This document shows, piece after piece, positions 36,001-45,000 of a stretch of DNA of 64,000 nucleotides. A program made the position numbers. Position 1 is the first letter of the stretch, and each line of letters starts with the position of its first letter. This stretch comes from Sphingobacteriales bacterium. Lineage in GTDB: Bacteria > Bacteroidota > Bacteroidia > Chitinophagales > UBA2359. The stretch lies in assembly GCA_016706405.1 (NCBI GenBank), contig JADJJT010000002.1:569445-633444 (forward strand), given 5' to 3'.

Positions 36001-39000
36001 GCGAAAACTGGAAATTGAGTTTGCTCCTTAACCTGCGAAACCGTATTGCAGAGGAATTAAATAAACATGCTATAAAAGAAAAATACCCAGCTATTGAGTT
36101 TAGCGGGGAAGAACTAATAAAAAGGGTAAGCTACTTAAAAATAAATACGGCTATAAAGCCAGATTTAGAAAATGAAAAAACGGCGTCTATTTTTTCAGGT
36201 GGCGAGTACGCTTCAATTTCTTTAGAACAAATTTTGTCTTTAAAATCGGTTATTGACCAAAAAATAAACGAAATAGCATGAATAAACTTTTAGTACATGG
36301 CAATAACACATCGTTTAACAGGTACGATTTTTTTACAGGAACAGAGCAGTTTGTCTTCGATATTGACATAGATAAAGATGTTGATTTGTATATAAATGAA
36401 ATTTTGGAAATGGAGATTACAGAAGGATTAAAAAAGAGAATAGAAAAAAGCGATATTGTTTTCATTAAAATTGCCTTAACCCAAAACTATTTAGAATATT
36501 TTGGTTTGAGATTAGCCTATCATATAAGGTTAGCTAAAAATTTAGGAGAAAAATCAAAAATACCAATTGTTTTTATTGCCGAAGAAAGTTTTCAATTTTT
36601 AGGCTCAACCTGCCACGAGCCATCAATATTATTTACAAAGGGTATTTATTTAATAAAGGAGACGCTGGAAGATTTAGAAGATATAAAAAACAGGTATGCA
36701 AATGGAAGTATAAAACCATTAGATGGTTATGATTCTTTTATAAATTCCATTTTAATACACCCACCTTCCAACTACAAATCCCATCATTCTATTGCCAACG
36801 AGTGGGCTATTTATCGTTGGGCTACTGCTTTACAAATAAATGACGACCAGATTCGAACCATTGAAAAAACAATAGGCAGCAATCTGTATTTTAAATATTT
36901 ACAATTTAAGTACCCAATTGCAGAGCTTTCTCCAGTTGCAGAAACTACTGAGCCAGCAAATCGGGTTGTTCCGAAAAGAGGTAATGTTTTATATATAGAT
37001 GACGAGGTGAACAAAGGATGGCATAGTATTTTTACAAAAATCTGTTCTGACAGGCTCTTTAAATCTCAATTTGAATCTATTGGGGGTGATTTTAAGAATT
37101 TAAGCAAGGAGGAGATTATCGAAAATTCGTTAGGTATGGTCAAGGGCGATTTCAATCCCGATATTGTTATTTTAGATTTCAGGCTTCATGATGATGATTT
37201 TGAAGATGCAAAATCCTTTGAACCTGCAAGACCCGAAGATGTTACTGGATATAAAATTTTAGTACAGATTAAGGCGTATAATCCTGGTATTCAGGTTATT
37301 GTTTTATCGGCAACAAATAAAATCTGGAATTTTATGGAGTTGCATGCAGCAGGCGCAGATGATTTTATCATAAAAGAATCGCCCGAACTAAGTGTTGATG
37401 AAAATTATAGCAGAAAAGCTATCGATAAAATCTACAAATCTATTGAAAAGGGGCTAACGCGAGCTAAATATTTAAAGCACGCTTTTAATTTTTTGAACGA
37501 ATCGAACGAAATTTTAGAAAACAAAAATATTCCTGATGAGTTAAAAACCACTATTAAAAAACAGCTTGAACTTTCTTATTTTCTTTTATCCCGTGCTGGA
37601 AAAGAGGAGGAGTTTGCCTATGCTTTTGTTGCGTTATACATGATAATCGAGTCAATTAATAAAGAGTTTGTTATAAAATCGTCAAATTACAAATGGATTT
37701 TTAATAATGGCGGTAATGATTTAGACCTTTTGGATTGGGGTTACAAGGAGGAAAATCAAATTTATACCAATACCAATACCCCGGTTACTGGCACTCAACC
37801 GCCAGAATGGCAAAAATTGGCAGGCTTGTATTTTCAAATTTGGAACGGCGAAGATCATGGTTTAATTAGAACGGCATATCATTTAATCAAAAAAAGGAAT
37901 GGTTTTATTCATAATGATAAGAAAATTTTGGATTATCAAGACAATAGAGGTAACTATTTGAATCACGACATATTTACACCCAACGGAACGATTAGTCTGT
38001 TTGAATGTATAGGCGAAATATTTAAATCCATTCAAACCAAAGATACCGCAATAGAAAAAAAGCCGGGAATACAATAAAACTGGTTTAAATATAACTGCAA
38101 CCCTCAAAAGATTGAAGATTGCACATAAGGATATAAACCCGAAGTGTTCAAATATTTATTTATAGTACCAAATTGCATTGGGTTTTTTATACGCCCCCGT
38201 TGGGGTCGAGCCCTTTGTTCATTGGAATTTTTCTATAATAATAAAATCCCTTCGGGGTTGATTAGGCTATATTGGTATATTTTTATCATATAAATATTAT
38301 TTGTTGTGCAGTATCAATTCACAGAACAATCCTAACTTTGCATTTGATTAAAAAAATCCTATGAGCATATTCAACCATTTTAAACATTTAAATCTTAGTC
38401 CCGGTCAAGAGGAGGCGCTAACCAAATTAGCGGCGTTCTTGGAAAGGTCCGGTACAGGTTTTTATGCTAAAAGGGTATGCAGGTAGCGGTAAAACAACCA
38501 TTTTAGCAGGTTTGGTCGAGTACCTCGCTTCTATTGAAAAAGATTTTGCCCTGATGGCACCTACCGGAAGAGCAGCCAAAGTAATAAGGGAAAAAACCGG
38601 GCAGGAGGCTTTTACTATCCACAAATCTATTTACAGCTATGATAATATGATGCCCGTTGAAGAAGGCGATTCTTTTTTTTACTCCTACAAAATCAGGAAT
38701 AATGTAGCGGTGGCTGGAAAAATTTTTATTGTGGACGAAGCTTCTATGTTGTCTGATGTTAAAAGCGAGGGCGAGTTTTTCCGTTTTGGCACCGGGCATT
38801 TATTATCCGATTTGATTAGTTACACCAGAGTTGCCCAGCCAAATGTAAATTCTAAAATTATTTTTGTTGGCGACCCCTGCCAGTTGCCACCCGTAGGCGA
38901 TAACAGCTCAAAAGCCTTTGATGCCAGCTATCTTGAAGAGAAATTTAATCTTGCCTCAGAAGAAACTGAAATGAAAGAAGTGCAAAGGCAGGGCGGCGAT

Positions 39001-42000: not shown

Positions 42001-45000
42001 CAAAGAAGAAAAAAAGGAGTGGGGCTGGAAATTAATATAAACCTAAACGCATTGAACCCAAAATAAAAAATCCGGATAGAAAGCATTTTAAAGCCTCTAT
42101 CCGGATGTTTTAGAATTAGTAAGGAATAAATAACATCAATATTTATTTCATCCTACTTATATTATAAATGTTCAAATTTATTTTTGTGCTGGAGGATATG
42201 ATATTGTTTTACTGTCATTAAGTTGGGGATTTAATGCAGTTTGGGCAATTTTTTGTTGGCTGTTTATTTTATCCGGATGCTGTTTTTGTTGTTGTAAATT
42301 GCCATGTCCCCCGCTACCGGCTGAGGTGTGCCCTCCTAAAATTGGTGCTATAATTAAGCCCACCAAACAAGTTAATTTAATTAAAATATTCATCGAAGGG
42401 CCGCTGGTATCTTTAAAGGGGTCGCCTACGGTATCGCCAATAACGGCGGCTTTATGAGGCTCGCTGCCTTTATAATAAACCTGGCCATCAATGGTAACGC
42501 CTTTCTCGAACGATTTTTTGGCATTATCCCAAGCGCCGCCGGCATTGCTTTGAAAAATTGCCCACATAACCCCCGAAACAGTTACGCCGGCCATATAGCC
42601 ACCCAACGCTTCGGCACCTAACACAAAACCTATTATAATGGGCGAAATAATGGTAATTAATCCGGGCAGCATCATTTCGCGTATGGCTGCTTGGGTTGAT
42701 ATTTCTACACAACGGCCATACTCGGGTTTGCCGGTGCCTTCCATAATCCCTTTAATTTCGCGGAACTGCCGGCGCACTTCGTTTACCATAGCCATTGCAG
42801 CTTTACCTACCGAGTTCATAGCCAAAGCCGAAAATACAACCGGAATCATGCCGCCTAAAAACAGGGCTGCCAAAACCGGTGCTTTAAAAATATTAATACC
42901 GTCAATACCCGTAAAGGTAACATAAGCGGCAAACAAACCAAGTGCTGTAAGTGCCGCCGATGCAATAGCAAAGCCTTTACCTATGGCGGCAGTGGTATTG
43001 CCCACCGAGTCTAAAATGTCGGTGCGCTCGCGCACTTCTTTGGGCAGGTGGCTCATTTCGGCAATACCGCCGGCGTTGTCGGCAATAGGGCCAAAAGCGT
43101 CAATAGCTAATTGCATGGCTGTGGTTGCCATCATGGCCGATGCCGATATTGCAACGCCATAAAATCCGGCCAACCAGTAGGTAATAATAATTGCTCCTGA
43201 AAATATAATAATTGGCAATGCTGTTGAAAGCATACCTTGCCCCAATCCGGCAATAATATTAGTTGCTGCGCCTGTTGCCGAACGTTGCACAATGGCATTT
43301 ACGGGGCCTTTTCCTAATCCGGTATAATGTTCGGTAATTAACGATATTAATGCGCCAACAACTAAACCTACCGCAACAGCGCCAAATACATTTAACGAGC
43401 TAATAGTGCGAGTTCCTTCACCAAAAAACGACAAAGTAATTTCTTTGGGCAGCATCCAAGCAATTAGGCCATAGCAGGCAATACCTGTTAAAATTATCGA
43501 AAACCAGTTGCCGCGGTTTAAAGCACCTTGAACTTTGTCGGAGTTTGCTGTGCCGTCGTCTTTAACATTTACAAACCAGGTTCCAATGATTGAAAAAATA
43601 ATGCCCAGTCCGGCAATGGCAATAGGCAATAAAATAGGCCCAATACCGCCAAAACTATCGGTTAGTTGTGGATTGTCGCGTATTACATAATTACCCAATA
43701 CCATAGTGGCTAAAACGGTAGCCACATACGAGCCAAACAAGTCGGCACCCATGCCGGCTACGTCGCCTACGTTATCGCCTACGTTGTCGGCAATGGTAGC
43801 GGGGTTGCGGGGGTCGTCTTCGGGAATGCCGGCTTCTACTTTACCTACCAAGTCGGCACCTACATCGGCAGCTTTGGTGTATATACCGCCTCCAACGCGG
43901 GCAAACAAGGCAATGCTTTCGGCACCTAAAGAAAAACCTGCCAATACTTCTAAAACAAGGGTCATTTTTTGGTAGCCGCCACCAGCCATGTTTCCGCCCA
44001 TAAAAAACGAGTAAAATAAGGCAAACAACAGGCTTAAGCCTAAAACAGCCAAACCCGCAACGCCTAAGCCCATAACAGCTCCGCCAGTAAACGAAACTTT
44101 TAAGGCCTGTGCCAAACTTGTACGGGCGGCTTGTGTAGTGCGCACATTGGCACGAGTAGCTATTTTCATTCCAATAAAACCAGCTATGGCCGAAAAGCAT
44201 GCACCAACAATAAAAGCCGCTATTATTAGCCAATGTGAGGTAGCCACTATTTGCGACATAATACCAAGCAATACACTGGCAATAAGCACAAAAATAGCTA
44301 ACACTCGATACTCGGCTTTTAAAAAGGCCATAGCGCCATCGGCTATATGTTTTGAAATAGTGCGCATTTGTTCTTCGCCGGCATCTTGTTTGCTCACCCA
44401 GTTAAACTGGACGTACATATATATAAGGCCTAAAACGCCAAAAATTGGTAGTAGGTACACTAAAAACTCCATAATTTAATTTTCTGCTTAATAGATTTTG
44501 CGGGTTATTGGTAAATAATAGATTTGCAATATGAGATAAAATGTTAATTTTAACAGATTGACCCGCAAAGATACGTGTAATAATAGAAATATTATGGTTT
44601 TTTTGAGGAGTTTTTTGCGAAGCAATATAGTTTATTCCTCCGGAATTTAGGGAATTATTCCGGAGTTTAAATTATCCGGATGCAATTTGCCTTATGATAT
44701 TGCTATTTTGCTTTTCCGGAGTTAAAGTCAAAAAAATCACAACAAAATTAGCTCATTTGAGGGGCGGGCGCTATATTTTGGTAGATGGTCAGTAAGGTTT
44801 TTGCTTCGTTTTGCCAATTATACACTTCGCGGGCAGCTAAACAATTTTGACGTAAACTTTGGTATAATTTTGGGTCGTTGAGCAGTTGGTTGGCCGCCTG
44901 TGCAATTTGCGCGGGCTGCAAATTAGGCAATAAAAGTGCAATTTGATACTTGGCGTTAATAGCGGCGTACTCGGTAAAATTGCTGCATAACTGTGGCACA

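Follow-up and report, generated by a model that had tools for sequence, protein, structure and literature searches.

What kind of system is encoded by two overlapping genes, a helicase and its partner, that lie beside a retron in a 64,000-nucleotide stretch (the window) of contig JADJJT010000002.1 from a Sphingobacteriales bacterium, and does it work with that retron? The window has a G+C content of 38.6%, and its nearest named relatives are Saprospiraceae and other Bacteroidota. The original prediction, made from the sequence alone, described two open reading frames (ORFs) that overlap by 11 nt, and this layout was recovered on the plus strand: the helicase ORF (38464..40551) encodes 695 aa, the partner ORF (40541..42040) encodes 499 aa, and the two share the sequence ATGCCAGCTAG. 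Judged by its profile matches, the pair is a TOTE module, listed as PDC-M16 by PADLOC, and is therefore of an already catalogued kind. Its linkage to a retron is possibly the sole new aspect.

Both components of PDC-M16 are matched by the adjacent genes over their full length, in the case of the helicase once a frameshift (see below) has been repaired. The helicase ORF matches PDC-M16A with an E-value of 7e-257 (1.8e-269 and 894 bits after repair), and the partner matches PDC-M16B with an E-value of 2.7e-207 and 687 bits. We take PDC to stand for 'phage defence candidate'. The proteins match the Pfam models of the TOTE families (TBP-TOTE, DUF7017, S1CSD-TOTE-1 and S1CSD-TOTE-2) at 2.5- to 6-fold the gathering scores, and the accessions PF22721, PF22708, PF22707 and PF22860 carry TOTE-derived names. 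All four hallmarks of TOTE that can be examined on the genes are present, namely a TPR-OB protein, a TBP-like domain, an SF1 helicase in the effector position and a conserved neighbourhood. According to a 2025 preprint (PMC12458937), TOTE denotes TPR, OB, TBP and Effector, a computationally predicted system credited to Aravind, Iyer and Burroughs 2022. The suggestion in the original prediction that TPR plus S1/CSD (cold-shock domain) architectures occur in predicted conflict systems was thus right, although this architecture was not found described in the 2020 paper on 'NTP-dependent' conflict systems, as far as could be traced.

The motor of the helicase belongs to superfamily 1B (SF1B), in agreement with the earlier reading of a RecD/Dda-like enzyme. 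Pfam matches to the ORF comprise AAA_30 (1e-21), AAA_19 (2e-20), UvrD_C_2 (2e-12) and TBP-TOTE (PF22721, 8e-31), and the closest PDB sequences are 9kwf_B, RecD2 (3e1s) and Dda (3upu). The best NCBIfam match is RecD2 (TIGR01448) at 108.5 bits, which is far under the equivalog cut-off of 500 and rules out identity as a RecD2 equivalog. The motor motifs GSGKTT, DEAS, GDPCQLPPV, HKAQGGEW and YTAITRA, which supply Walker A, Walker B, motif III and motifs V/VI of the RecD/Pif1/Dda type, are invariant in 20 homologs. Based on family membership, the enzyme would be expected to translocate 5'-to-3' on single-stranded DNA.

Beyond the motor core, the helicase continues for ~240 aa, close to the C-terminal extension of roughly 250 aa that had been proposed. 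The TBP-TOTE match falls into two stretches of this tail (106 bits), and the AlphaFold2 model of the tail (predicted local distance difference test (pLDDT) 77, predicted template modelling score (pTM) 0.48) contains a unit of strand, helix, four strands and helix twice. The two repeats are homologous by eye in sequence (IRYTFSREQDKAV... versus ERYTFKRNSEKAV...), and the TBP-repeat residues are invariant among homologs. The top PDB matches of the tail model in Foldseek are structures of RnlA (4i8o and 6y2q, E 7e-05). The model thus supports a tandem TBP-like fold that is nearest to RnlA. The two N-terminal domains of RnlA are TBP-like and bind substrate (PMC8266594), and a related domain in RNase HIII binds RNA-DNA hybrids (PMC3710099).

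The partner consists of an α-helical N-terminal part followed by two β modules. In the AlphaFold2 model (pLDDT 86.6, pTM 0.73), residues 1-360 are all-α, Pfam identifies DUF7017 (5e-49, 166 bits; cut-off ~27), and Foldseek of the full-length protein returned TPR superhelices only (OGT TPR, Ski3 and designed TPRs), all of which bears out the TPR-like helices first read from the sequence. Two cold-shock/S1-like modules had also been proposed, to be abandoned if the C-terminal region failed to model as OB folds. It does model as two OB-like barrels, five-stranded β modules at residues 366-430 and 440-498 that carry the motifs KFGFFKYDRF and GKPFGFIDDVFIHPS, respectively. Module 1 matches S1CSD-TOTE-1 (6e-19, 68 bits; cut-off ~27), has five strands in the model and contains the invariant residues G391, K394, Y395 and R397; its alignment to the cold-shock fold, at KFGFF, is weak. 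Module 2 matches S1CSD-TOTE-2 (1e-18, 67 bits; cut-off ~27) and is modeled as β1-3, helix, β4-5, with the helix in its classic position after strand 3. Its profile aligns to CspA in hhalign with a probability of 75% (E 2.6e-05), placing FGFI on RNP1 and VFIH on RNP2, and F455, G456, F457 and H464 are the same in all 21 homologs compared. Searched by itself against PDB sequences, the OB region gave no meaningful match; since Foldseek found only TPR folds, the OB assignment rests on Pfam, the topology of the model and hhalign.

Within DUF7017, residues 246-291 of the partner form an invariant block (KK.NDFWVW ... FAC.C..L.C..P.EML..LRQK). This block holds three invariant cysteines (C271, C273 and C278), which may be a metal site.

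The two genes are kept together in related loci. A scan of one genome per species gave 61 loci, almost all from Bacteroidota. Sixty of them include some DNA upstream of the partner, and in 58 of these 60 the gene immediately before it, in the same orientation, is a helicase homolog. The prediction that the pair is conserved as neighbors, which separated genes would have contradicted, therefore holds. A short overlap is maintained in 38 of these 58 pairs (11 nt in 27 and 8 nt in 11). Homologs of the partner are also found on 68 plasmids, including 22 from Escherichia and 24 from Klebsiella. An E. coli IncY plasmid, NZ_CP139341, carries the pair alone, as a 979-aa DUF4145-helicase-2xTBP protein and a 474-aa partner. 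A metagenomic protein of 1193 aa (P0357) contains the helicase, TBP-TOTE, DUF7017 and both S1CSD domains in one polypeptide, and represents a natural fusion or else read-through of overlapping genes. Other genes take the place of the helicase in Arcicella aurantiaca DSM 22214 (locus L066, 6029-11467), where a WYL regulator is followed by Cas1, then by a BT4734-like_N protein that matches TBP-TOTE weakly, Cas2 and the TPR-S1CSD protein. The only 'phage' record with a homolog (L078; GenBank MT835724, 'Bacteriophage sp.', unverified) has the pair after a NusG-like gene, with no reverse transcriptase (RT). The presence of an AcrB efflux pump and a Na+/H+ exchanger in this record points to a probable origin from a bacterial contig, and carriage of the pair by phages was rejected.

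The helicase has no intact reading frame in the window. The original prediction placed an N-terminal extension, starting at ATG 38361, in another frame and joined it to the main ORF at a T5 run (38459-38463). The extension is genuine: this ATG opens a 41-codon ORF, in a frame other than that of the 695-aa ORF, that is homologous to the N-terminus of the family, and the PADLOC profile PDLC04475, which matches the 695-aa ORF from position 35, matches the repaired protein from position 1 with a gain of 42 bits. The junction at the T5 run had to be abandoned. Thirteen other assemblies of the same population (~99.9% identical; L001-L006 and L068-L074, from ENA, Logan, JGI and two NCBI metagenome-assembled genomes) encode an intact 729-aa helicase from the ATG equivalent to 38361, and the T5 run is the same in all 13. 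The sole indel relative to these assemblies is 18 nt further upstream, an extra A in 'ggAAAgg' at 38441-38443, and the true frame junction reads ...LAAFLEGPVQVFMLKGYAGSGKTT. Nearly all homologs of the helicase are exactly 729 aa, and all are in frame. The lost segment holds the invariant residues N11, L12, Q16, L23, F26 and F34, and Q16 is where the adenine-recognising Q motif of SF1 helicases would be expected. Hence, a restart at Met35 would probably give a crippled protein.

The extra A is an inactivating mutation private to this assembly or else an error of the consensus, and we consider the chances evenly divided between a gene that is intact in the organism, with an error in the assembly, and one that is not. 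An error would agree with the A2 found at this site in all 13 other assemblies, and with a private substitution at 42771 and a scrambled GC-rich patch with the look of bad consensus at 34705-34766, both in the same window. Conversely, the extra A is the only indel across the ~14.6 kb aligned to L001, the homopolymer run is merely 3 bases long, and an insertion sequence (IS) element disrupts the adjoining module as well, which would fit decay of the island. The argument from decay is weakened by the L069 assembly, which contains the same IS together with an intact helicase. A genuine extra A would probably leave the module dead, or with no more than a helicase that lacks its conserved first 34 residues. 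A programmed frameshift or phase-variable switch, to which the position of the indel might point, within a short homopolymer and early in a gene that is probably costly, is highly improbable and was rejected, as every homolog is in frame, the variant occurs in 0 of 13 other assemblies, 2-3 A are too short for slipped-strand phase variation, and neither a slippery heptamer nor a downstream structure was seen. The gene should be annotated as a frameshifted 729-aa helicase gene starting at 38361, and not as a 695-aa gene. The patch itself (60 nt) has 24 differences from L001, with runs of C/G (ccgccccccggcgcccc...gggggcccctgggggcccccc) between identical flanks, and looks like a local consensus artefact.

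Upstream of the pair is the retron module (Table 1). Its non-coding RNA (ncRNA) has a 5' arm (~31784-31806, GTTCTTTGAAAGCCTGCTAC) and, complementary to it, a 3' arm (~31950-31972) that extends up to the start of the RT gene. These arms covary in 18 other loci (e.g. CTGCTGC/GCAGCAG, CTGTCGC/GCGACAG and TCTATCGCA/TGCGATAGA), and the core between them is conserved (GTGCCAACTGGAA...GATCGGTTGGTGTTC). Rfam had no match in the island, the ncRNA leader included. The RT, which is fused to a histidine kinase (RT-HisKin), is followed by a gene for a 227-aa protein and by the iREC-REC gene. No Pfam, PADLOC or NCBIfam model matched the 227-aa protein or the last ~230 residues of the iREC-REC protein, and either of these could be the missing effector of the island. 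The 227-aa gene is intact in L001 and split here by an IS element of 1060 bp (34869-35928) with inverted ends (GGAGTAATGGACA...) and a 9-bp target duplication (CTAAAAATC). A second copy of this IS, 94% identical, is located at 2417-3627, and the insertion is seemingly common to the NCBI assembly GCA_016702425.1.

The association of pair and retron extends well beyond this population. Among the 45 loci with at least 7.5 kb of upstream sequence, a retron-type RT is found in 38, a WYL regulator in 33 and iREC-REC in 28, in a constant order. The RT is kept upstream even where the partner is only ~32% identical, and a Chryseobacterium plasmid, from a different class, has the same gene set and order, with RT and histidine kinase as separate genes.

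The two modules also share a putative operator. A palindrome precedes both the retron leader and the helicase, and these are the only two matches (with at most 1 mismatch) in the 64-kb window; the background rate is 193 matches in 747 kb, or one per 3.9 kb. In 33 of 42 related loci, the palindrome precedes the helicase ATG by 46-56 nt, and the WYL-RT intergenic region of related loci contains one or two further palindromes. The consensus of the Bacteroidota -7 promoter element is TAnnTTTG. Such a box occurs ~10 nt past each palindrome of the window, and a TTTG box follows at constant spacing in nearly all related loci; the box before the helicase probably acts as a promoter. The presence of the same palindrome before the retron leader and the helicase identifies the pair as a co-regulated second module, and the 'second module of the island' of the original prediction is borne out by a predicted promoter and operator of its own, the operator being common to the retron module. 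Regulators of the BrxR/CapW type, with helix-turn-helix (HTH), WYL and WCX domains, control defence islands through palindromic operators located before the regulated operons. The divergent WYL/WCX protein of the window has the same HTH-WYL-WCX set and, by analogy with them, most likely regulates both modules through the operator. The link to the retron and the operator common to both modules merit further study.

We favor the interpretation that the pair is a TOTE/PDC-M16 complex that acts in defence and is switched together with, and functionally coupled to, the retron; taken as a whole, its chances are slightly better than even. It builds on what is seen in the locus, namely the domain content, the translational coupling of the genes by their overlap and the shared palindrome. 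The helicase and the partner would form one complex, in which the TBP-like pair grips the duplex or RNA-DNA hybrid part of a nucleic acid, the OB pair holds its single-stranded part, and the SF1B motor unwinds or strips the target by ATP-driven translocation, while a further protein would dock on the TPR surface. The module would defend against phages or other mobile DNA, a role suggested by its context (the WYL regulator, the retron, the Cas1-Cas2 variants and the plasmids). The divergent WYL/WCX regulator probably switches the pair and the retron operon on together, and the RNA-DNA product of the retron is probably either the target of the helicase/OB complex or its controller. This link is favored by the presence of the RT in most loci, the shared palindrome, and the binding of RNA or RNA-DNA hybrids by TBP-like domains in RnlA and RNase HIII.

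Several observations weigh against this interpretation. The pair contains no recognisable nuclease or toxin domain. The match of the tail to RnlA has low TM-scores in Foldseek (~0.25) and relies on a model of moderate quality, and binding of the operator by the WYL/WCX protein is deduced from analogy. In the searchable literature (PDC-M16, DUF7017, TBP-TOTE, retron plus histidine kinase), we found no experimental work on TOTE/PDC-M16, and no validation of PDC-M16, so that the 'defence' label comes from context alone. Finally, the pair occurs without an RT on E. coli, Klebsiella and Acinetobacter plasmids and in two loci, L015 and L059, and thus a retron is not obligatory for TOTE systems.

These stand-alone pairs speak for another explanation, in which the pair is an autonomous two-gene defence system that stands beside an unrelated retron through the clustering of defence genes, with only the regulator in common. 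The E. coli IncY and Acinetobacter plasmids show that the pair can stand alone, L015 retains a WYL gene, two palindromes and the pair with no RT, the pair has its own predicted promoter, and the PADLOC model consists of two genes. Chance clustering would not lead one to expect that 38 of 45 loci have an RT with constant order and orientation, down to ~32% identity of the partner, nor the same order on a plasmid from a different class, nor an identical operator before both modules. We regard this explanation as rather unlikely. A housekeeping role of the helicase in DNA repair or replication, outside any conflict system and with the partner resembling a single-stranded DNA-binding protein, would suit the RecD2-like motor and the OB folds, and is very improbable given the patchy spread of the partner family (1572 clusters at 50% identity among 1.84 billion representatives), the carriage of the pair on plasmids, its neighbors (WYL regulator, retron, Cas1-Cas2 and toxin-antitoxin genes) and the perfect terminator repeats around the whole 11.7-kb block.

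The coupling of a TOTE/PDC-M16 complex to the retron can be extended into a more specific proposal, which we put forward tentatively. In Bacteroidota, the TOTE pair might be the nucleic-acid-handling output arm of a conserved retron system with seven parts: the WYL regulator, the ncRNA of the retron, an RT with a histidine kinase of the conflict type either in the same protein or encoded after it, a small protein of unknown function, iREC-REC, helicase-TBP and TPR-OB. One operator would switch both operons, the TBP-like and cold-shock-like domains would read the RNA-DNA product of the retron, and a phosphorelay would link sensing to the helicase. No description of this composite was found in the searchable literature, whose reach does not include the 2022 paper that defined TOTE.

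Comparisons with known systems help to place the locus. It shares all four parts of TOTE by family-specific models (TPR with DUF7017, two S1/CSD OB modules, TBP-like repeats and an SF1 helicase as the effector), and seems to differ in the retron and two-component module wired to it in this lineage by the shared operator; the helicase is also frameshifted in the window. It agrees with PDC-M16 in both proteins and their adjacency, whereas the PADLOC model is limited to the two genes. TALON, as described in the 2025 preprint PMC12458937, has a TPR-CSD gene and TBP genes in common with the pair; its own helicase is of the YprA family, fused to an inactive RNase H, and accompanied by a NERD nuclease, in contrast to the SF1B RecD-like helicase found here with no nuclease. 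The anti-phage toxins RnlA and LsoA (4i8o and 6y2q), the best structural match of the tail, likewise have tandem TBP-like domains. TBP1 of RnlA is needed for substrate binding, but its catalytic domain is a HEPN RNase and not a helicase, and there is no sequence similarity to the helicase tail (~12% identity). Type V retrons (Mestre et al. 2020, PMC7736814) also have a CSD-bearing accessory protein beside the retron. In that case, the protein is a solo CSD of 67-86 aa, compared to a 499-aa TPR protein with two CSDs, a helicase and an RT fused to a histidine kinase here. Compared to RecD2 and Dda, the motor motifs match, the SH3-like insert is matched weakly, the N-terminal region is different, and the TBP-like tail occurs in this family alone. 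Finally, the divergent orientation of the regulator gene and the palindromes before the regulated operons recall the arrangement known for BrxR/CapW-type WYL regulators.

Table 1. Coordinates of the features of the island in the window.
Feature	Coordinates	Strand	Remarks
WYL/WCX regulator gene	30484..31494	-	Pfam WYL 8e-10, WCX 1e-06; candidate operator binder
First module	31743..38077	+	operator, retron ncRNA, RT-HisKin, 227-aa gene split by IS, iREC-REC
Putative operator, retron	31743-31761		palindrome TGTGCAG-N7-CTGCATA before retron leader
Retron ncRNA	about 31784-31972		leader 5' of RT-HisKin gene
RT-HisKin gene	31974-34526		
iREC-REC gene	36278-38077		599 aa
Putative operator, helicase	38305..38323		palindrome TGTGCAG-N7-TTCACA, ~55 nt before helicase ATG
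Putative promoter box	38333..38340	+	TAACTTTG; fits TAnnTTTG consensus
Helicase 5' fragment	38361..38486	+	28 correct codons, then out of frame to TAG stop
A3 run with one extra base	38441..38443	+	A2 in L001-L006 and L068-L074
Main helicase ORF	38464..40551	+	residues 35-729 of intact protein; SF1B motor and C-terminal tail
Tandem TBP-like repeats	39898..40530	+	residues ~479-579 and 584-689 of 695-aa ORF
TPR-like α-solenoid including DUF7017	40541..41620	+	partner residues 1-360
S1/CSD-like OB module 1	41621..41836	+	partner residues 361-432, KFGFFKYDRF; Pfam S1CSD-TOTE-1
S1/CSD-like OB module 2	41861..42037	+	partner residues 441-499, FGFI...VFIH; Pfam S1CSD-TOTE-2
Bidirectional terminator hairpin	42057..42110		after the pair; free energy -20.6 kcal/mol, z -4.05

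The island of 11.7 kb is bracketed by a perfect direct repeat of 54 nt (66 nt at 95%), located at 30330-30383 and at the terminator hairpin that follows the pair, and the window contains just these two copies. The repeat may be the footprint of the insertion of the island. There is no integrase inside the island, and an 'empty site' was not found, as each contig with an identical H+-PPase gene also carries the island. A second, GC-rich repeat of 84 nt (31593-31676 and 38180-38263, 80% identity) is located upstream of both operators. It is lineage-specific, with no further copy in the window and none in other loci; its plus-strand fold is no better than those of shuffled sequences, and a role as a structured RNA or conserved element was rejected. 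A HigB toxin and HTH_3 antitoxin pair (47194-47850, minus strand) is found 5 kb downstream of the island.

The locus provides a clean and well-conserved example that would be useful for a first test of TOTE/PDC-M16, one among many predicted defence systems. Its link to a retron, which brings two-component signalling of its own, is tight and regulated, and close relatives of the pair are found on plasmids of E. coli and Klebsiella. If the link to the retron is functional, the retron would pass its RNA-DNA product to a helicase/OB machine, which would represent a new type of retron effector.

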